Virus record (IMG/VR): IMGVR_UViG_3300028048_003152
Span: 4,795-68,794 of that record
DNA: 64,000 nt
Reading direction: 5' to 3' (one strand)
DNA from: a virus
Lineage: Duplodnaviria > Caudoviricetes
Shown here: positions 33,078 to 62,079 of the stretch, in pieces
How positions within the stretch are numbered: position 1 is the stretch's first letter
Layout: each line of letters opens with the position of its first letter
The notes under the pieces: model-generated
Seen by the model: the letters and a program-made list of their open reading frames with translations, nothing else
Database searches by the model: none
Told to the model about the DNA's origin: nothing
Made by a program: the position numbers and the translations under genes

Positions 33078-33704
33078 TTAATCGTTGGCGTCTTCCGCTG
33101 CCAGCTTTTCGGCTTTCTTACGCTCCCGACGTGCCTTCTCAGCGATGCGGTTCTTTTCGCGGCGCTCCGCCAGTTTGTCCGGGTGGGCTGCATAGTATTC
33201 TTTCTGGTAGGCCATGATCTTCTTTGACCGTTCCTCTTTCGTCATCGGCGGCTTCTTTTCCTTTGGAGGTTGTTCCGCCTTTTTCTTTTCATACCACCGC
33301 TTATTCTGCTCTGCCTTTCTCTGCCGATACTCCTTGGCGTAGTCGCTCTCAACCAGGATGCGAATGATGTTGCCCCGGCAATCCTCACTCTCGCCGATGC
33401 AGACAAGGTTTTTCAGGTTGTAATCCCGCCAAATGCGGATCAAGCGCTTACGGATGGCTCCACCGAAGTAAGTGCTGAATTTACCGCCCTTAAAGTTCCC
33501 CCGGCTGATGATTTCCCAGGCTACAATGTTTCCCTCCTGTAGGAAGTCCTCCGTGCTGTAGGTATCCATCTTGCCGCGGTACATCTCCGCCTCATGAAGA
33601 GTAATCGGGGCAAGGTTGCGGAAGAGCTGTTCATATGCTTCTTCCTCGCCGTGTATGATCAGCTCAACCAGTTCCTCGTTGGTGTAATCGGTATATCTCT
33701 TCAT
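33078..33704 (-). CDS. Sigma-70 region-2-containing protein lacking region 4
   Basis: TNEELV...AYEQLF...EDFLQEG...FSTYF; Lys/Glu-rich tail. Confidence 0.65.
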   Translation of the reverse strand: MKRYTDYTNEELVELIIHGEEEAYEQLFRNLAPITLHEAEMYRGKMDTYSTEDFLQEGNIVAWEIISRGNFKGGKFSTYFGGAIRKRLIRIWRDYNLKNLVCIGESEDCRGNIIRILVESDYAKEYRQRKAEQNKRWYEKKKAEQPPKEKKPPMTKEERSKKIMAYQKEYYAAHPDKLAERREKNRIAEKARRERKKAEKLAAEDAND

Positions 33705-42732: not shown

Positions 42733-42792
42733 ATCGTGTTCTCCTATCGGGAGGGGAGTTGCATTTTCCCAGGTCAGGGCTGAATAACAACT

Positions 42793-42838
42793 CCCCTCAT
42801 ATACTGTCCGCTGAGAGGCCGATAAATAACTATCCCCT
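42793..42838 (-). promoter_or_regulatory. 46-bp operon-head motif, copy 2
   Basis: 41/46 identical to 56064..56109. Confidence 0.65.
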
Positions 42839-42858
42839 CAAAACTTTTTTATATTTTT

Positions 42859-55962: not shown

Positions 55963-56063
55963 GTACAGTTCCTTTCTTCGGGTCTTTCCCGATAACGAGC
56001 GGACGGCCACAGCCCATGTGAGCCGCAGCCGTCCGTATGTCAGATTATGGAGGATTAACAAGT

Positions 56064-56109
56064 CCTCTCATATACTGTCCGCAGAGAGGCTGTTTAATAA
56101 CTATCCCCT
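56064..56109 (-). promoter_or_regulatory. 46-bp operon-head motif, copy 1
   Basis: AGGGGATAGTTATT-N5-GCCTCTC-W-GCGGACAGTATATGAG; overlaps the regulator stop codon. Confidence 0.65.
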
Positions 56110-56835
56110 GTAGTTTTTTTTCACTTTTTTTGTCGCCCCATCAAGATGATGCTTAACACCAACCTGCGTGATGCCCATAAGATCAGCGATTTCGTACTGG
56201 TTATACCCATAGTGGAAATACAGGATGAACACCTGACGCTGCTTCTCGGTCATGCTGTCCAGCGCCTCCTGCCGCGTCTCCTTGCGGATGTAAATGGTCT
56301 CCGGATCTTCGCCGATCTGATCCTCGCGCCAGGTATACTCATTCCGATAGGAGTCTTCCACAGCTTCCTCGGCATCGCCGTCCTTGTCGCCATTGTCGTC
56401 GGCGTTATAGTCCTTGGTCCCCTTGCGCCCACCCTGGCGCCGGTTCATGCTGTTCTGCTCCACCCTGTGATCCCCGACCAGCGTCAGCGCAAGCACCCAT
56501 GGCTGGGATTCCAGGAAGCCCTCCGGCAGGTCGATGTGCTCCTTGATCTCGCCGCCTTTCTCGCTCTCCTTCATCTTATCGAAGTAGTAGGTGAAGGAAA
56601 CGCAGGAGGGGATCCACACGACCGTGCGGCCGGATCCGTTGTCGTAAACCCCATAGCCGTTCGAGTAGACCAGAATGCCGTCACTCTCCGCAATCGGCTC
56701 TCCGGCTTCCTCCCGGAGCTTCCTTGAGGTCGGAGTCTTCGCTGCCCTGGTCACGGGGCCGAGGAGGTCGATCAGCTCGCCCAACGTCGTGTTCTCGGTG
56801 ATGATGTTGCCATTGATAGTTCTGTTGTTTTCCAT
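56101..56835 (-). CDS. Sigma-70 region-4 HTH regulator, paralogue 3
   Basis: MTEKQRQVFILYFHYGYNQYEIADLMGITQVGV. Confidence 0.8.
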   Translation of the reverse strand: MENNRTINGNIITENTTLGELIDLLGPVTRAAKTPTSRKLREEAGEPIAESDGILVYSNGYGVYDNGSGRTVVWIPSCVSFTYYFDKMKESEKGGEIKEHIDLPEGFLESQPWVLALTLVGDHRVEQNSMNRRQGGRKGTKDYNADDNGDKDGDAEEAVEDSYRNEYTWREDQIGEDPETIYIRKETRQEALDSMTEKQRQVFILYFHYGYNQYEIADLMGITQVGVKHHLDGATKKVKKNYRG

Positions 56836-56841
56836 GTTCGC

Positions 56842-57040
56842 GTCCTTTCTGCAGGACGCACTCCCGGCTGACAGATGCTCTCGGACCCATCACCGGCATC
56901 ACCCATGGAAAAGGGCGCACAGGCAGAAGGTGTCCTGACGCTCCATCCCCAGCTTCTCAACCACAAACTCGTGTGATCTCTAATCTGGATCTGAACCGTC
57001 TGAACATCTGTCCGCCAGTGTGCACCCTGACTTTCAAATG
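56842..57040 (-). ncRNA. Candidate structured 5' leader, copy A
   Basis: 43-nt block 56998..57040 and 26-nt block 56914..56939 identical to copy B; the blocks base-pair with each other. Confidence 0.55.
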
Positions 57041-57085
57041 GTTTTTTGTATTGTGATCGCGGCTCTCACCGCGCAGTCACCGTGA

Positions 57086-57742
57086 TTACTGATTGTTGCT
57101 GTAGTACTTCTTGACTTTTTCCAGAGCTGCCCTCAGATGCTTGCTCACAACCTGCTGTGCGGCTCCGATCATCTTCCCGATCTCCTGCTGTGTGTATCCG
57201 CGCCTGTACAGGACGAGCACCCGCCGCTGTTTCTCGGTCATCAGTTCTAGAACTTCCTCCATCTCCATCCGATGGATCAGTGCATCCTCAAAGCTGTAAT
57301 GCCCGCCATTCATCCAGTTCTTATCGTCCGGGATCTCCGAATGCTTGCTGATCCAACCCCGCTCCCGGTCATCCTCGTTCTTTTGCAGCTGGTCATCGAC
57401 CGCCATCATCAGGCGCAGCGGCCAGGGCTGGTCGAGGAAGAACTCCTCCTGGAAGTAATGCTGCAGATCGTCCCCGCCATATTGGAAAGCAGTCTTCTCT
57501 CCGTTGTCCACGAGATATCTGTAGTCTCTGCACTCATCGACTCTCACACCGACTGTCCGCCGTCCCGACCTGCCGATGGCAAAGCCGCAGGGATAAACAG
57601 CAATCTGGTAATCAGAAGACTCATACACAGCGATAGGCGCGCCGGAGGATCGGATGAACTTCGCTGTGGGGATGCGGTCGTAGGCTTCTGTGGAGGGGAG
57701 CTGGGACTTCAGCTCTCGCAGCGTTATGTACTCGCCCATCAC
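57086..57742 (-). CDS. Sigma-70 region-4 HTH regulator, paralogue 2
   Basis: MTEKQRRVLVLYRRGYTQQEIGKMIGAAQQVVS. Confidence 0.8.
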   Translation of the reverse strand: MMGEYITLRELKSQLPSTEAYDRIPTAKFIRSSGAPIAVYESSDYQIAVYPCGFAIGRSGRRTVGVRVDECRDYRYLVDNGEKTAFQYGGDDLQHYFQEEFFLDQPWPLRLMMAVDDQLQKNEDDRERGWISKHSEIPDDKNWMNGGHYSFEDALIHRMEMEEVLELMTEKQRRVLVLYRRGYTQQEIGKMIGAAQQVVSKHLRAALEKVKKYYSNNQ

Positions 57743-58221
57743 TGCACCTCCCCGGCTTCCAGCGCCTTCTGCACGGCCTGAATCGCTTTCGTCAGCCTCA
57801 GATACGACTGCTCCGGCGTGCAGAAATCCATCCCAGCGATAGCCTTGAGCGGGATGCCCCAGTGGTAGAACATGATGACCGTGTTCTTCTGCTCTACCGG
57901 CAGGGCGCGGACGGCCATCTCGACCACATCGTTCTTCTCATACGGCGTCCCGATGTGCCGCGCCGTCTGGATCAGCCCCAGCCAGGGGAGCTTCTTCGCC
58001 GCTTCCGGCAGCCGGTCGAGGTAGTCCAGCACCCAGAAGGTCTTGCCGCCGACCTCGGCGTAGCCGTTGTTGTAAATGGACACTCCGTCCGCTTCGATGA
58101 TCAGTTCTGCCGACCTCGCCAGGTAACTTGCTGTCGGCGCGCGGCCGGCCTTCTTCGCTCCGGCAAAAGTGGCTGCGAGTTCCTCCATGGCGCTGTGGTT
58201 GGTGATGAGATTGGTATTCAT
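57739..58221 (-). CDS. Sigma-70 region-4-like regulator, paralogue 1
   Basis: ALPVEQKNTVIMFYHWGIPLKAIA; shares the IYNNGY and PW motifs. Confidence 0.65.
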   Translation of the reverse strand: MNTNLITNHSAMEELAATFAGAKKAGRAPTASYLARSAELIIEADGVSIYNNGYAEVGGKTFWVLDYLDRLPEAAKKLPWLGLIQTARHIGTPYEKNDVVEMAVRALPVEQKNTVIMFYHWGIPLKAIAGMDFCTPEQSYLRLTKAIQAVQKALEAGEVQ

Positions 58222-58226
58222 GATTC

Positions 58227-58424
58227 CGTCCTTTCCGCAGAGCCTCCCCCGGCTGACAGATGTTCCCGGATCCTTGCAGTCATCACCCCACAGAAAAAGG
58301 CGCACAGGCAGAAGGTGTCCTGACCCTCCAGTTCCGCTCGGATCACCACATCATGTGTGGCTTCCTCTTCGGAGCTGAAATGTCTGAACATCTGTCCGCC
58401 AGTGTGCACCCTGACTTTCAAATG
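58227..58424 (-). ncRNA. Candidate structured 5' leader, copy B
   Basis: Blocks 58382..58424 and 58299..58324 identical to copy A. Confidence 0.55.
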
Positions 58425-58629
58425 ATATTTATTGCTGTCCGGGAAAGCGCCGGACGCGCCGCTCAGTATTTAGCCGTGTGCTGCTTCTTTTGACCGCCTC
58501 CAACCCGGTCAATCTGCCTCGCCAGCCTATTGTGTTCAAAAAGCAACGCATCCTGCTTTTTGGTTCGCAAATCCTCCACAAAAAATTTACATTCCTGCAT
58601 TTGAAATTCTGGATTTTGCCATCTGAATG

Positions 58630-58689: not shown

Positions 58690-58724
58690 TCGGCGGCGCT
58701 CGGCAGCGTTCGGCGGCGTTCGGC
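58690..58724. repeat. Helically phased 10-bp direct repeats
   Basis: TCGGCGGCGC TCGGCAGCGT TCGGCGGCGT TCGGC. Confidence 0.8.
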
Positions 58725-58760
58725 AAAAATGCAATTTTTCAGAAGGGAGTGCGCGCCAAC

Positions 58761-59795
58761 ATGGAGTTTAAAGACTTCGCCGACATCCTGAAAACGCATA
58801 TAAACGTGGATGCCGACGATGACGAATTCTTTATGGAGATATTCGACAACTATCTGCGCGAACCCACCGACGAGGAATTGCAGAAGCTGGAGGATGCAGC
58901 TAAGAAAAAAGAAAAGAAAACGAAAAAACATGTGGAGCCGGAACCCTGGAATCCCTTTGACGGCATTGGCAAAGACGCCCAGGAGCGTTTGTTCCGCGGG
59001 CAGCGTCCGTTCCAGGTTCCCAAGCTGAAGAAAGCATATGGGAGGCGTGACGATAACCGCTTCGCCGCATATATCAATGGCCAGAGCAAGATGGTTGTGG
59101 CGCATATCGAAGAGGACTTCCTGCGCCTGATACCCGACTTCATCGATGACCAGAATATCGGGTATGCATGTCAGGACTGGCTGACACAGTTCATCCAGCG
59201 CGAGATTGACCGTGACCGTAATGCGCAGCCGGAGCCGCCAGCAAACCGCATGACGGTGCAGCAGTTCCACGCATCGTTCTATGTGGACTGGATTGAAGGC
59301 AAGATCCATTATGGCAATGAATCAATTACGATCCCGCCGGAGCTGATCCCGCCAGAAGAAATCGCGGATGAAGAAGATCTCTATGTCGGTGCCCTGCTTG
59401 ATGCATACGCACAGGCTGCAGGTGACGCGCCCGTTACGCGGGAGGATGTCCATCTACTGAAAAAGACCTACCGGGAGAACTTTTCCCAGCAGCGCATCAA
59501 CTACTATGCCGCCGTCAGAATCACCCGCATCATCCGGGAATGCTTCATCGATGACAAGGAGGAGCTTGACCGCTGGCTGAACGAATCCTCGGATTATATC
59601 AGCATTACCCGGTGTGACGATTATGACGATGGATACCAACGGCTGAAAGCGGTACTTAAGAAGGTGGTCGATTGCAGGACAACCTCCGCTGTGGATCAAT
59701 GCGGAAGGCTGATCGGACCGAAGGAACGCCAGGGCGTCTGCCATCTGCTGGTAAACAACGAAGCGTTTGTGTGGGTAAATGAAGATGATGAATAG
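58761..59795 (+). CDS. ABC-three-component/Lamassu-like effector with uncharacterised N-terminal domain
   Basis: C-terminus RINYYAAVRITR...GVCHLLVNNEAFVWV typical of ABC-3C CTDs; operon context. Confidence 0.7.
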   Translation: MEFKDFADILKTHINVDADDDEFFMEIFDNYLREPTDEELQKLEDAAKKKEKKTKKHVEPEPWNPFDGIGKDAQERLFRGQRPFQVPKLKKAYGRRDDNRFAAYINGQSKMVVAHIEEDFLRLIPDFIDDQNIGYACQDWLTQFIQREIDRDRNAQPEPPANRMTVQQFHASFYVDWIEGKIHYGNESITIPPELIPPEEIADEEDLYVGALLDAYAQAAGDAPVTREDVHLLKKTYRENFSQQRINYYAAVRITRIIRECFIDDKEELDRWLNESSDYISITRCDDYDDGYQRLKAVLKKVVDCRTTSAVDQCGRLIGPKERQGVCHLLVNNEAFVWVNEDDE

Positions 59796-60240
59796 CGCGT
59801 TTAATTCCAACACAGAAATCGCCCTGCGGATTCTTCTCTCCCTCTACGCAAGCGAGGAGAGCCTATCCGTGGACGAGCTGGTGATTCTCGATTTTGTAAC
59901 GGTATACGCTAAGGATTTCGGGATCACGACATATAATCTCCACGGCGACAACAAGAGCAAGGAATCGGAATTCGCCGCCCGCCGCCAGCAGGTAAAGGAA
60001 GCGATCCGGTTTCTGGTAACGCAGGACTATGTTGATGTCGAAGAAGCTAATAACGGATTCCTCTTCAGCATCAACGCTAACGGCACTGCCCTCTGTGATT
60101 CTATGGAGAGTACATACGCTGCGGATTACACTGCCGCCGCTATCAAAGCCGCTGAATACGCGAAAACCCACGGCCTTGAAACAGTTCTCTCCGATATCAA
60201 CCGGAAGGCTCTGGACTTCCACAAGGAAGGTAAAAAGTAA
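59779..60240 (+). CDS. ABC-three-component middle component
   Basis: FNSNTEIALRILL...LDFVTVY..DFG...NLHGD. Confidence 0.75.
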   Translation: MKMMNSAFNSNTEIALRILLSLYASEESLSVDELVILDFVTVYAKDFGITTYNLHGDNKSKESEFAARRQQVKEAIRFLVTQDYVDVEEANNGFLFSINANGTALCDSMESTYAADYTAAAIKAAEYAKTHGLETVLSDINRKALDFHKEGKK

Positions 60241-62079
60241 ATGGATTTTTTTATCAAGCAGATAACAGCACATGCTTTCCAGCCGGAACGGGAAGATTCA
60301 TCTGTGGTCTTCAGCCCTGGCGTGAATATGATCGTCGGAGCCTCCGATACAGGCAAATCGGCTGTGCTCCGCTGCATAAAATTCATGTTCGGTGGGGAGA
60401 AGCCTTTTGATCCAAAGGCGAAGGGCTTTAACAAGATCACCATGGTTCTTGGAACCATGAAAGGCGAGATTACGCTCACCCGCTATATCGGCCGCAATCG
60501 CATCAGCGTTGAAAGCGATATCCCCGGCGTGATGACCGGCGAGTTTGGTGCTGATTACGATGATAAGAACGAGAATGCGCCGCCATCCATCTCCCGTTTC
60601 TGGTTTTCCATGTACGGAATCCCAGGCGATCCGATGATCATGTGGCGCAAAGTTGGTGACCGCAAACATCTCACCATGAAAACGATCCTGCCCTCGTTTT
60701 ATCTGAACGAAGGCGATATCGATAACGCGACCTCGGTTATCCTCCCGGAGCGTGAGACGGCGCAGGTGCTATTCCTGTCTGCGCTGCTCTACTTCCTGAA
60801 CGGGGAGGAATACTCGGAACAGAAAATCTATGATACCGACGCTATTTCAAAAGCGAAACGCGCCGCTGTTGAGCAGTTTGCCAATGACCGTATCGCCGCC
60901 CTCACGAGGCAGCGCGAAGATACGGAAAAAGAACTGAAGAAATTTGACGGCATCAACGTGGAGGCGGAACTGCAGCAGTCCATTTCCCGGCTTGCCGAGA
61001 CCGAAGATTCCCTAGATGAAGCCTTCAGAAAGCAACAGGCTCTCAGTGAAGAACTGTCGCGTTATAATGATGAAGAAGCAGAGCTGACGCTTGTCCTCTC
61101 CCGCAACCGGGAACTTGCCACACAGTATCGGTCGGACATCGACCGTCTGATCTTCCTGACCGAAGGGGACAGGCTGCTGAACAATAATGAAGCCACCACC
61201 TCCTGCCCGTTCTGTCGTAGTAGGATCGATCCTATTACTCGGCCATCTTACATGGCATCCAACCGCGCCGAGCTTGCCCGCATCACACGGCAGGCCGAAG
61301 GACTGTCCGAAAGTGAACAGGACGTTGTGGAGCGGCTGAATTATATCCGTGGACAGATCACCTCCGCGGAGAAGGAGATCAACCAGCTCCAAACCATGAT
61401 CACGCGACAGCTCAGTCCTCTTGCCGATCAGCTACGCAAGGATATCGCTGTGTACAGGCACTACATTCAGACCAAGAACACCTACGATCTGTATCAGCAG
61501 GTTTCCAAGGATGTGCAGAAAACGCTGGATGCGCCGGAGTATCAGGTCAAGGCGCCGGAAACTGTGTTCAAGCCCAGGGATCATTTTCCTCTTGGCTTTG
61601 TCGCCGACATGGGCGCTATCGCTACAGAAATCCTGACGGAAGCAAACTACCGGAACCTTAATGTGGTAGAATTCCTGATCCAGCCCTTCGATCTCCAGAT
61701 CAATGGCGTAACGAAACAGGAAGAACATGGCAAAGGCTATAACTCTTTCATAAACACAGTAATGGGACTGACGATGCGCCGGTACTACATCGACCACGCG
61801 GAGTACAACCCCGGTCTGTTTATCGTCGATACGCCCTTCCACGGTTTTGACGAAGGGAAGGTCATCAAGGAAGCCAGCATGGTACATGGCCTGTTCAACT
61901 ATCTGATCGGTCAAAACGGAACCGGCCAGATCATCGTCGTGGAAAACGACAAAAGCGTCCCGGAGGATATCGACTTTGAGGCGCTTGGCGTGAATGTGAT
62001 TGATTTTCACAAGGATAATTACAAAAGCCGATTTACAAACAACCGCTACGGTTTTCTGATTGGAGTGACAGGGAAGTAA
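60241..62079 (+). CDS. Rad50/SMC-like ABC ATPase
   Basis: Walker A GASDTGKS, coiled coils, CPFC zinc hook, HGKGY signature, FIVDTP Walker B. Confidence 0.9.
   Translation: MDFFIKQITAHAFQPEREDSSVVFSPGVNMIVGASDTGKSAVLRCIKFMFGGEKPFDPKAKGFNKITMVLGTMKGEITLTRYIGRNRISVESDIPGVMTGEFGADYDDKNENAPPSISRFWFSMYGIPGDPMIMWRKVGDRKHLTMKTILPSFYLNEGDIDNATSVILPERETAQVLFLSALLYFLNGEEYSEQKIYDTDAISKAKRAAVEQFANDRIAALTRQREDTEKELKKFDGINVEAELQQSISRLAETEDSLDEAFRKQQALSEELSRYNDEEAELTLVLSRNRELATQYRSDIDRLIFLTEGDRLLNNNEATTSCPFCRSRIDPITRPSYMASNRAELARITRQAEGLSESEQDVVERLNYIRGQITSAEKEINQLQTMITRQLSPLADQLRKDIAVYRHYIQTKNTYDLYQQVSKDVQKTLDAPEYQVKAPETVFKPRDHFPLGFVADMGAIATEILTEANYRNLNVVEFLIQPFDLQINGVTKQEEHGKGYNSFINTVMGLTMRRYYIDHAEYNPGLFIVDTPFHGFDEGKVIKEASMVHGLFNYLIGQNGTGQIIVVENDKSVPEDIDFEALGVNVIDFHKDNYKSRFTNNRYGFLIGVTGK

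Follow-up and report, generated by a model that had tools for sequence, protein, structure and literature searches.

We studied a leader sequence that occurs twice in the early region of a prophage and asked what such an RNA could do at the entry to the lytic programme, where it stands directly before the phage's own sigma-like regulators. The window, i.e., the whole stretch of viral DNA analysed here, was 64,000 nucleotides long, and the minus strand was the coding strand for all genes of the region described below. To our knowledge, there has been hardly any work on gene regulation in temperate phages of the Clostridia that dominate gut and rumen (Oscillospiraceae, Lachnospiraceae and Ruminococcus). 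The host lineage of the prophage carrying both leaders was that of gut Clostridia; a 16S rRNA gene was not found in five host genome bins.

Regulator genes and leader copies

Three paralogous genes (A, B and C) lie in this region, and the two copies of the leader, c1 and c2, are located directly upstream of genes A and C, respectively:

57739-58221, minus strand: gene A, paralogue, 160 aa, with leader copy c1 directly upstream
57086-57742, minus strand: gene B, paralogue
56101-56835, minus strand: gene C, paralogue, 244 aa, with leader copy c2 directly upstream
56833..56835, minus strand: ATG of gene C
56101..58221, minus strand: gene block (A, B and C) under the proposed control of the leaders
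58222-58455, minus strand: leader copy c1, preceding gene A
56836-57080, minus strand: leader copy c2, preceding gene C

Pfam searches revealed a sigma-70 region-4 HTH at the C-terminal end of the products of genes B and C; no Pfam family matched gene A, which resembled gene C in its N-terminal part only (pairwise BLASTP). Each of the three has an uncharacterised N-terminal domain. In the AlphaFold model of the gene C product this domain was mixed alpha/beta, and a comparison of the whole modelled protein with Foldseek and VIA-align matched only sigma region 4, leaving the N-terminal domain without a match.

A duplicated leader of about 200 nt sharing two identical blocks had been proposed from the sequence, and the alignment of both copies (A1) confirmed it: c1 and c2, each ~215 nt long, were 78% identical over 216 nt (E = 2.6e-39), had a 43-nt block in common without any change, and both contained CATTTGAAAGTCAGGGTGCACACTGGCGGACAGATGTTCAGAC and GTCAGGACACCTTCTGCCTGTGCGCC. 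The order of the parts was the same in both copies: an imperfect hairpin of ~113-116 nt (T), a U tract, a segment named S3 and the Shine-Dalgarno sequence (SD). S3 corresponded to a second, downstream complement of the 5' arm of T, and its 3' end to the anti-SD arm of the hairpin in which the ribosome-binding site (RBS) is concealed. The third conserved block noticed earlier before each RBS is real, and it is this second complement of the 5' arm, overlapping the anti-SD. The parts of both leaders, all in the minus strand, were the following:

58437..58455, minus strand: c1, small palindrome or hairpin P0 (GUCCGG-N7-CCGGAC, read from the sequence), upstream of the leader
58413..58436, minus strand: c1, A-rich 5' flank, ending in CAUUUGAAAGUC
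58382..58412, minus strand: c1, 5' arm of the long hairpin (AGGGUGCACACUGGCGGACAGAUGUUCAGAC), the partner common to S2 and S3
58325..58381, minus strand: c1, variable apex of hairpin T (paired when folded at minimum free energy)
58299..58324, minus strand: c1, S2, the 3' arm of hairpin T
58293..58298, minus strand: c1, U tract UUUUUC, directly after the stem
58237..58265, minus strand: c1, S3 (inverted repeat I5), ending just before the SD
58219..58236, minus strand: c1, SD (GGAAAGGACGG) and ATG of gene A
57053..57080, minus strand: c2, P0 hairpin, just past the stop codon of gene B
57029..57052, minus strand: c2, A-rich 5' flank, ending in CAUUUGAAAGUC
56998..57028, minus strand: c2, 5' arm of hairpin T
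56940..56997, minus strand: c2, variable apex of hairpin T
56913..56939, minus strand: c2, S2, the 3' arm of hairpin T
56907..56912, minus strand: c2, U tract UUUUCC
56851..56880, minus strand: c2, S3 (GAGCAUCUGUCAGCCGGGAGUGCGUCCUGC), the second complement of the 5' arm, with the anti-SD at its 3' end
56840..56859, minus strand: c2, SD hairpin GCGUCC-UGCAGAA-AGGACGC, whose 5' arm overlaps S3

Complements of the 5' arm with at most three mismatches were present at four sites in the window, versus 0.21 expected by chance. A partner acting in trans was not found: no further sequence of the window resembled either the 5' arm or its complement.

Homologous leaders in other prophages

From prophages of Oscillospiraceae, Lachnospiraceae and Ruminococcus we assembled a set of 54 distinct hairpin modules; 36 of these belonged to complete single leaders that included S3. 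Wherever the host genomes were checked, the modules were located in the prophage early region only. Many phages had at least two modules each, and the several related copies of one phage often belonged to different subtypes; in some relatives (L005, L081, L083, L089, L107 and L066) the modules were arranged in tandem. About ten upstream modules in the relatives consisted of the hairpin and the U tract without S3, and a few modules with S3 had no clear U tract. The existence of both kinds indicates that the two functions are separable, and some copies may possess one of the two only incidentally. Two further candidates, L008 and L009, turned out to be chance matches to a loose DNA pattern.

The leader was better conserved than the proteins it would control: the 5' arm was identical in c1, c2 and the relative L012, and 44 nt were identical between phages whose proteins were merely 62% identical. 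The apex varied among the homologues in both sequence and length and always folded into a hairpin. The Rfam search suggested along with the original prediction matched no family, neither in the whole window at the gathering score (Rfam 15) nor between 55800 and 59000 up to E = 10, where only noise appeared (HIV-1_SL4, E = 7.8). A blastn search of the phage GenBank collection with the leader gave no match, the sequencing runs listed for this DNA were DNA contigs and not RNA, the leader sequences were absent from indexed papers, and keyword searches of the literature gave nothing specific. The family is in no RNA catalogue, and we class it as a variant of the attenuator and SD-sequestering leaders; with its 54 or more distinct modules it would be large enough for an Rfam entry.

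A terminator-like hairpin

The minimum-free-energy folds of c1 and c2 had z-scores of -3.2 and -5.4, none of 200 shuffled sequences folding as well, and the stability of hairpin T was -57 to -61 kcal/mol. Both folds contained the pairings expected beforehand, GGGUGCACA/UGUGCGCC and GGCGGA/UCUGCC, together with the CACA/UGUG apical hairpin and apical stems that differ between the copies and yet are paired in each. As in intrinsic terminators, the base of the stem was followed directly by the U tract (GUGCGCC-UUUUUC in c1 and GUGCGCCC-UUUUCC in c2), and in all but ~4 of the 54 distinct modules the GC-rich base of the stem ran directly into a U-rich tail. Hairpin and U tract together look like an intrinsic terminator, and we infer from them that transcription is actually terminated in the leader.

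The pairing of T was conserved in the family. In a sequence-only alignment (A3) 80.9% of the cells paired, versus 38-51% when the partner was slid, and changes on both sides were observed at 12 pairs (65 cells). In a covariance-model alignment (A6, 59 distinct rows) the corresponding values were 74.9% and 38-48%, and 18 of 28 pairs were compensatory (156 cells), a value that 0 of 500 shuffles reached, shuffle-based statistics being inflated by the relatedness of the sequences. RNAalifold predicted no pairs on a MAFFT alignment of the 54 modules, because the variable apex and the offsets between subtypes spoil a full-length sequence-only alignment; counts on named structures and the covariance-model alignment were used in its place.

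A second partner of the 5' arm and the SD

The 5' arm had exactly two strong partners, S2 and S3. The duplex with S2 ranged from -34 to -53 kcal/mol and was followed by Us in most leaders; that with S3, where present, ranged from about -35 to -52 kcal/mol and was followed by GAAAGGA; the third-best site reached -20 to -39 kcal/mol, mostly -22 to -33. On average S3 paired with the 5' arm at -44.6 kcal/mol and S2 at -43.3 kcal/mol. The values for c2 were -48.6 (S3), -45.0 (S2) and -30.2 kcal/mol (third-best site), and the 5' arm:S3 duplex of c1 had -37 to -38 kcal/mol (z = -3.6). In several leaders this helix comprised ~30 nearly perfect base pairs.

Two exclusive folds result from these pairings: T, with the terminator formed and the SD closed, and A, with the 5' arm paired to S3 and the SD open. 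A mean of 4.8 of the six SD nucleotides were paired in T versus 0.8 in A (four and none, respectively, in c1), and the hairpin that closes the SD (helix 3) showed compensatory changes at three of its eight pairs. The computed folds thus have what distinguishes an SD-sequestering switch: the anti-SD pairs with the SD, and the alternative pairing of the 5' arm removes the anti-SD. The distance from the end of S3 to the ATG was nearly constant, 12-16 nt, in the 36 single leaders. In c1, the bases GUC of the flank and the first A of the next part were unpaired in T and paired with UGC of S3 in the alternative; they are a possible toehold for S3 pairing.

The A fold covaried as well. On A3, 89% of the cells of helix 1 and 86% of those of helix 2 paired, versus 36-50% in slid controls, and 15 pairs were compensatory. 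The A-form pairs of columns 20, 22 and 23 with columns 296, 295 and 294 were kept in 35 of 36, 34 of 36 and 23 of 23 sequences, respectively. Column 47 paired with S3 as CG (16 sequences), UA (8) or UG (7), and the same column was mismatched against S2 in 16 sequences, which indicates that S3 tracks the 5' arm independently of S2. Cognate pairs of 5' arm and S3 had a mean of -44.6 kcal/mol versus -35.9 kcal/mol for non-cognate pairs from other subtypes, and 0 of 2000 permutations were as good. Across the family, compensatory changes thus preserve both folds.

When folded without constraints, 24 of the 36 leaders adopted T and 11 adopted A, and the forced folds differed by at most 5 kcal/mol in 19 of 36; in this window T was favoured over A by 11-14 kcal/mol. 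The U tract and S3 were 2-80 nt apart, and the spacer of most leaders measured 2-30 nt. Such a short spacer leaves no room for a separate promoter, so that the gene must be reached by read-through. Note that the leader is not a classical attenuator, in which terminator and antiterminator compete, since S3, the competing partner, is located downstream of the U tract and cannot pre-empt termination like a classical antiterminator; an upstream competitor of the 5' arm was not found. Given this position of S3, only the common 5' arm connects the two levels of control.

The counts point to an RNA of the sense strand: G·U pairs outnumbered A·C mismatches both in T (132 versus 65) and in A (136 versus 39), and the covariance model gave 38-116 bits for the sense strand of the loci versus 20-31 bits for their antisense strand. 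These data support a strand-specific, cis-encoded structured RNA with covariation.

Proposed mechanism

The arrangement of the parts points to a cis-acting leader RNA with two exclusive folds, which would gate a sigma-region-4-type early regulator gene at two levels; we give this reading a probability of about 0.6. During transcription T would form first, the 5' arm and S2 making the ~115-nt hairpin that, with its U tract, would serve as intrinsic terminator. In those transcripts that read through, the anti-SD at the 3' end of S3 would pair with the SD and turn translation off. In fold A the 5' arm, together with the three or four toehold bases upstream, would pair with S3, so that the anti-SD would be withdrawn and the SD left single-stranded. 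Actual gating of translation, like the direction and the cause of the switching, is what we infer from this anatomy. Because T is the more stable fold in this window, the default would be OFF at both levels, and expression of the gene would depend on T being weakened or pre-empted. If the model is true, a compact RNA device couples a terminator and a translational lock through one strand, which would be relevant to RNA regulation, synthetic biology and prophage induction in gut anaerobes.

The trigger, we think, is most likely a trans-acting factor that recognises the unusually conserved 5' arm or the T hairpin, perhaps a protein of the phage or of the host that may be associated with RNA polymerase. 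Besides the products of genes A, B and C, a candidate sigma-2-like protein (33078-33704) and, in relatives, XRE/ImmA-like neighbours come into question. No trigger was found: the window contained no other complementary RNA. Leader-peptide attenuation is not supported, as ORF length was not conserved: a conserved leader peptide was not found, the ORFs from the conserved AUG having from 4 to >60 codons in 15 scored leaders, a count that missed the window's own subtype, and by eye the 67-codon ORF of c1 ends after ~26 codons in c2. A tentative idea, to which we assign rather low odds, is that the extreme conservation of the 5' arm reflects recognition by a phage-encoded factor, first of all by the co-located paralogues themselves, with their uncharacterised N-terminal domain and a sigma-4 domain for which the beta-flap, at the exit channel of the RNA, is a conceivable docking site. 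They would block or melt T and thereby antiterminate and, via the 5' arm:S3 pairing, open the SD; in a variant, the terminated hairpin RNA of ~130-190 nt would act as an immunity RNA against incoming related phages. If the paralogues were the factor, the leaders would constitute an RNA-based switch with positive feedback that commits the phage to lytic growth.

Alternative explanations

The hairpin could be a plain strong terminator or insulator, or a stabiliser of mRNA ends, with S3 being a relic of tandem duplication and the SD hairpin a static damper of translation. Tandem modules in the relatives, modules without S3 and the clearly greater stability of T in this window agree with this explanation. 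We regard it as unlikely, as S3 is no weaker than S2 in its pairing with the 5' arm (mean -44.6 versus -43.3 kcal/mol), covaries with it where S2 does not, and keeps a distance of 12-16 nt to the ATG in subtypes with only 37-60% protein identity, which is not the behaviour of a decaying relic. The ~30 nearly perfect base pairs of the 5' arm:S3 helix in several leaders, formed only after read-through as at lambda sib, would also suit a site of RNase III processing or retroregulation, following the logic of lambda sib and the T7 early sites, where a long duplex is cut and the mRNA matured or destroyed. Such a logic would not be simple, however, since a cut inside this helix leaves the anti-SD on the mRNA, free to close the SD again, and it leaves the conserved U tract unexplained; we find it quite improbable. 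About as poor, or slightly poorer, are the chances of a trans-acting immunity RNA, a short terminated transcript of ~130-190 nt that would accumulate in lysogens and pair with related leaders of the same or a superinfecting phage, like the P4 CI RNA, which pairs with seqA and seqC. The layout of one sequence with two complementary partners, the multiple related copies in each phage and the promoter-like boxes shortly upstream of some first modules are all in its favour, but the pairing sequences are locked in a hairpin of -57 to -61 kcal/mol and the copies of one phage often differ in subtype.

The original prediction offered two interpretations, a switch for the regulators or an analogue of the HK022 put and lambda nut sites. 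The anatomy fits a cis-acting RNA and the former; a single hairpin of ~115 nt followed by a U tract does not fit the latter. HK022 put consists of two adjacent short stem-loops (~70 nt) without a U tract, located upstream of terminators and needing no protein factor, and lambda nut of a boxA and a 15-nt boxB hairpin with a conserved loop. The phage leader resembles them in that two copies of a structured RNA occur in phage early transcripts, but anatomically it is neither a put site, being a single long hairpin that abuts a U tract, nor a lambda-type nut site, as the apex varies in sequence and length, leaving no conserved boxB-like loop, and boxA is not conserved either. Processive antitermination in a broader sense, in which the leader, by itself or assisted by Nus factors and a protein of the phage, makes RNA polymerase ignore downstream terminators in the long, one-directional genome, would account for two copies within one early operon and for the extreme conservation of the 5' arm (44 nt identical versus 62% protein identity), and the UUUGAAA stretch of subtype A presumably resembles a boxA. 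Against this, the likeness claimed for the 5' end did not extend to the family, as just 8 of 54 modules contained UUUGAAA; the element consists of one hairpin whose apex varies; Rfam gave no match; and the U tract abuts the stem in all but ~4 of the 54 modules, the opposite of what an antiterminator needs. We consider this explanation very unlikely. Finally, the repeats could be DNA elements, i.e., operator half-sites for HTH/sigma-4 proteins, given that a ~15-bp sequence occurs once in forward and twice in reverse orientation beside genes for DNA-binding proteins. The 2- to 3.5-fold excess of G·U over A·C, the strong strand asymmetry of the covariance model and the pairing that is always kept in the variable apex are not expected of protein-binding sites and make this explanation hardly credible.

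Comparison with known leader RNAs

Alternative pairings of one segment determine if the SD is hidden or not in lambda cIII mRNA, in the Bacillus subtilis trp leader, where TRAP brings about sequestration of the trpE SD, and in ermK; the trp and ermK leaders control both termination and translation within one leader. They differ from the phage leader in their input (leader peptide, TRAP or RNase III) and in the order of the elements, the phage leader having one 5' arm and two long (30-40 nt) rival complements. In the lambda pR'-tR' "6S" leader with Q, a promoter-proximal terminator gives rise to a short leader RNA unless it is read through, and at lambda sib a structure formed only in read-through transcripts alters the fate of the mRNA. 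A short leader RNA from a terminator and a structure restricted to read-through transcripts would be common to these and to the phage leader, for which neither a Q-like gene nor a qut site nor a dependence on RNase III is known. The outcome proposed here differs from that at sib, being opening of the SD and not decay.

The cATT element of the pLS20-family conjugative plasmids is a zipper-type transcriptional attenuator, and its most conserved part is a 5' strand, a feature that suggested to its authors that an RNA-binding protein or a counter-transcript is involved (Gonzalez-Alvarez et al., NAR 2026, PMC13401043). Likened by architecture alone, both leaders open a very long one-directional operon in a mobile element of Firmicutes and immediately precede its first regulator gene, and both present a long imperfect stem-loop after a weak small hairpin, plus a terminator, two conformations of similar free energy and a 5' strand that is the best conserved part. 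In cATT, however, the long hairpin is separate and its extension, by pairing of the complementary flanks, swallows a small downstream terminator, the antiterminator fold being the default, whereas the long hairpin of the phage leader itself ends in the U tract and the alternative partner, placed downstream, would control the SD and not termination. The phage leader is thus not a zipper-type attenuator: its alternative fold replaces the 3' arm and does not extend the stem. The downstream genes are unrelated, ConAn1 in the case of cATT and sigma-region-4 proteins in that of the phage leader.

Sequences upstream of the leaders

A convincing sigma-70 promoter consensus was not found in the A-rich flank; the promoter scan gave a single weak site in the minus strand, from 58693 down to 58664, and the relatives were variable in this respect. 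In the two relatives checked (L023 and L113) the upstream repressor-like gene had an ordinary terminator of its own. The 50 nt preceding the modules, where P0 is located, folded better than their shuffles, with a mean z of -2.3 and z < -2 in 31 of 53 cases.

Gene organization of the early region

The window is a provirus in IMG/VR with almost all its genes on the minus strand. The early region and the leaders studied here, c1 and c2, are arranged as follows:

from ~58.2 kb downward, minus: early genes, namely three paralogous regulators (A, B and C), then DUF7768 and DUF2800
next downward, minus: family-A DNA polymerase, SNF2 helicase and D5-type primase, then NrdD, then terminase and further genes
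58222-58455, minus: leader copy c1, preceding gene A (160 aa)
56836-57080, minus: leader copy c2, between gene B (218 aa, upstream) and gene C (244 aa, downstream)
58749-62079, plus: ABC-3C operon (CTD6 effector, MC2 middle component, SMC-like ATPase)

Pfam searches placed a sigma-70 region-4 domain at the C-terminal end of proteins B and C and matched protein A to no family. Pairwise comparison showed that A and C have a common N-terminal domain and that all of B can be aligned with C. In the AlphaFold model of C this N-terminal domain is alpha/beta and not sigma-2-like, and matches to solved structures were confined to the sigma-4 part. A 208-aa protein at 33078-33704 (minus) gave a weak Sigma70_r2 match (20.6 bits; Pfam cut-off 24) without region 4; a split sigma factor might consist of this protein together with paralogues A-C, of which B and C have a detected region 4. 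Gene A's stop codon and gene B's start overlap (GTGATG, 57739-57742, minus) and GGAGG lies 7 nt upstream, which suggests translational coupling of the two genes. The ABC-3C (three-component) defence-type operon is complete and divergent from the early operon, in a position occupied in relatives by an XRE/ImmA-like gene. Three tandem 10-nt repeats of the TCGGCGGCGC type were found in the intergenic region between the two operons (58690-58725).

Anatomy of the leaders

The duplication of a structured leader, the starting point of the original prediction, is real: c1 and c2 are 78% identical overall and both contain the 43-nt and 26-nt blocks quoted in it. Each folds as an imperfect hairpin, T, of ~113-116 nt (fold z = -3.2 and -5.4), with a GC-rich base, GGGUGCACA / UGUGCGCC, followed directly by UUUUUC or UUUUCC. 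A repeat finder located an inverted repeat of the 5' arm, S3, downstream of this U tract after a spacer of 26-27 nt. According to RNAduplex, the 5' arm with its 3-4 preceding bases has exactly two strong partners per leader (about -35 to -52 kcal/mol): S2, the 3' arm of hairpin T, and S3; the third-best partner is background (-20 to -39, mostly -22 to -33 kcal/mol). S2 is followed by the U tract and S3 by GAAAGGA, a Shine-Dalgarno (SD) sequence. A small hairpin, GCGUCC-UGCAGAA-AGGACGC, is predicted to hide the SD; its 5' arm coincides with the final ~10 nt of S3 (GUGCGUCCUGC in c2). Two mutually exclusive folds are thus predicted: fold T (5' arm:S2), in which the terminator-like hairpin is present and the SD hairpin closed, and fold A (5' arm:S3), in which the anti-SD is taken away and the SD is open.

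Most modules (hairpin plus U tract) are preceded by P0, a small palindrome or hairpin, and then an A-rich linker; in the window P0 lies at 58437-58455 and 57053-57080 (minus), and the 50 nt upstream in relatives had a mean z of -2.3. Since some 'first' modules have a TATAAT-like box ~7 nt before P0, the leader transcript may begin with P0; alternatively, P0 may be an operator. A 67-codon ORF crosses the whole of c1 from a TTG (58218-58421, minus), its TGA overlapping the ATG of gene A; it is not conserved in c2, where the equivalent frame ends after about 26 codons.

Distribution among relatives

Searches anchored on the protein of gene C and on its family retrieved 465 proteins (E <= 1e-5) and led to about 100 loci in genomes of Oscillospiraceae, Lachnospiraceae and Ruminococcus, in metagenomes and in IMG/VR viral contigs. 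A 5'-arm profile gave 83 matches (65 unique), all on the gene strand and only two of them in the window. The resulting collection holds 54 distinct hairpin modules, of which 36 belong to complete single leaders that include S3. The subtypes are unlike in sequence (e.g. GGGUGCACAC..., GGGCGCGCAC..., GCCGGAUGCAUAC..., GGUGCACGCAGG...) and the architecture is kept across all of them. Two modules per phage are common, arranged in tandem or, as in the window, separated by 0.6-1.5 kb. S3 and the anti-SD are missing from about ten upstream modules, which do have hairpin and U tract, and a few S3-bearing modules have no clear U tract. In L024 (776-916), L023 (1302-1445) and similar loci, a module without S3 and anti-SD lies upstream of an S3-bearing one; that of L024, examined in full, precedes a DUF7768 (nucleoside deoxyribosyltransferase-like) gene. 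Because of these modules, the terminator-like hairpin appears to be a portable unit and the SD gate an add-on specific to sigma-like genes. In three host genome bins the covariance model matched prophage copies alone; of 151 genomes sampled from one host family, 3 had a match.

In relatives the first module is preceded by a co-oriented gene for an XRE/Cro-type HTH protein or for another HTH-containing protein, in one case (L110) also with an ImmA-like M78 peptidase domain. In the two relatives examined (L023 and L113) this gene has an ordinary terminator of its own; the long hairpin thus belongs to the leader of the early operon and is not the terminator of the repressor gene. Between U tract and S3 the spacer is in most cases shorter than a promoter requires, so transcription must arrive at the regulator genes by read-through.

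Evidence for RNA structure

Covariation, proposed in the original prediction as a check, was found for both folds. For fold T, standard pairs filled 80.9% of cells in A3, a sequence-only MAFFT alignment, vs 38-51% with the partner slid, with both-side changes at twelve pairs. In A6, a covariance-model alignment, the values were 74.9% vs 38-48%, and 18 of 28 pairs were compensatory (156 cells); 0/500 shuffles equalled this, although shuffle statistics are inflated by shared ancestry and the slid-partner controls and subtype differences are more telling. The two main helices of fold A were paired in 89% and 86% of A3 cells vs 36-50% slid, with fifteen compensatory pairs. Column 47 covaries with S3 (CG 16, UA 8, UG 7) and is mismatched with S2 in 16 sequences; therefore, S3 is more than a copy of S2. 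Across subtypes, cognate 5' arm:S3 duplexes reached -44.6 vs -35.9 kcal/mol for non-cognate ones, with 0/2000 permutations as good.

DNA operators would be a different explanation of such repeats. G·U pairs exceeded A·C mismatches in both folds (132 vs 65 in T; 136 vs 39 in A), and covariance model R1 scored the sense strand of the same loci at 38-116 bits vs 20-31 bits for the antisense strand. Both asymmetries indicate a coding-strand RNA and argue against operators.

Energetics and proposed mechanism

Folded without constraints, the full leader had T as its minimum-free-energy structure in 24/36 cases and A in 11/36. When the folds were forced, A minus T averaged +6 ± 8 kcal/mol, and the two lay within 5 kcal/mol in 19/36 leaders; the mean number of paired SD nucleotides, out of 6, was 4.8 in T vs 0.8 in A. 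In the window T is favoured by 14 kcal/mol (c2) and 11 kcal/mol (c1), by which the default there should be OFF.

We propose, with a probability of about 0.6, that each leader is a two-level gate, on termination and on translation, of a regulator gene. Hairpin T would form first and terminate most transcripts; those reading through would be translationally silent as long as T persists, because the anti-SD would then be free to close the SD. If T were prevented or opened, S3 would capture the 5' arm and the SD would open. A toehold for S3 could be provided by the unpaired bases immediately before the stem; they pair with S3 in 35/36, 34/36 and 23/23 sequences.

Conservation of the 5' arm greatly exceeds that of the neighbouring protein: between the window and L012, 44 nt are identical at 62% protein identity, and between the window and L024 about 90% of positions at 37%. 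Part of this conservation arises because two partners must be paired. Since the arm is conserved also in modules without S3, we infer that a trans-acting factor probably recognises it sequence-specifically.

The original prediction had offered two readings, a put-like antiterminator and a switch for the regulators. The analogy with put or nut sites fails on anatomy, the element being a single hairpin with a variable apex that abuts a U tract, and the boxA-like 5' end is no family feature (8/54 modules). The switch was right in outline, on the predicted two-fold anatomy.

Comparison with known systems

The suggested Rfam search found no such family, and the leader sequences do not occur in indexed papers. 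The leader represents a real, well-populated, uncatalogued cis-regulatory RNA family of predicted function. The closest described system is cATT, the zipper-type attenuator of pLS20-family plasmids; the two are alike in a long imperfect stem-loop with a weak upstream hairpin, near-isoenergetic folds, a conserved 5' strand and a location ahead of the first of the regulator genes in a long operon of a mobile element (PMC13401043). The cATT terminator is a separate downstream hairpin that is swallowed by extension of the stem (PMC13401043). Unlike in cATT, the leader's long hairpin is predicted to be the terminator itself, and the rival pairing would act on the SD. There is also partial resemblance to bistable SD-sequestering leaders, the lambda pR'-tR' leader and lambda sib.

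A second repeated motif

A ~70-nt motif occurs twice on the minus strand with 88% identity, at the start of the replication block (56050-56125) and at the start of the HNH/packaging block (42780-42855). Its 8-mer GCGGACAG, perhaps by chance, is also present in the leader 5' arm. The motif contains an A tract, GGGGATAGTTATT and a CCTCTC/GAGAGG inverted repeat flanking GCGGACAGTATATG, and may be a promoter or operator on which regulators of the phage itself act.
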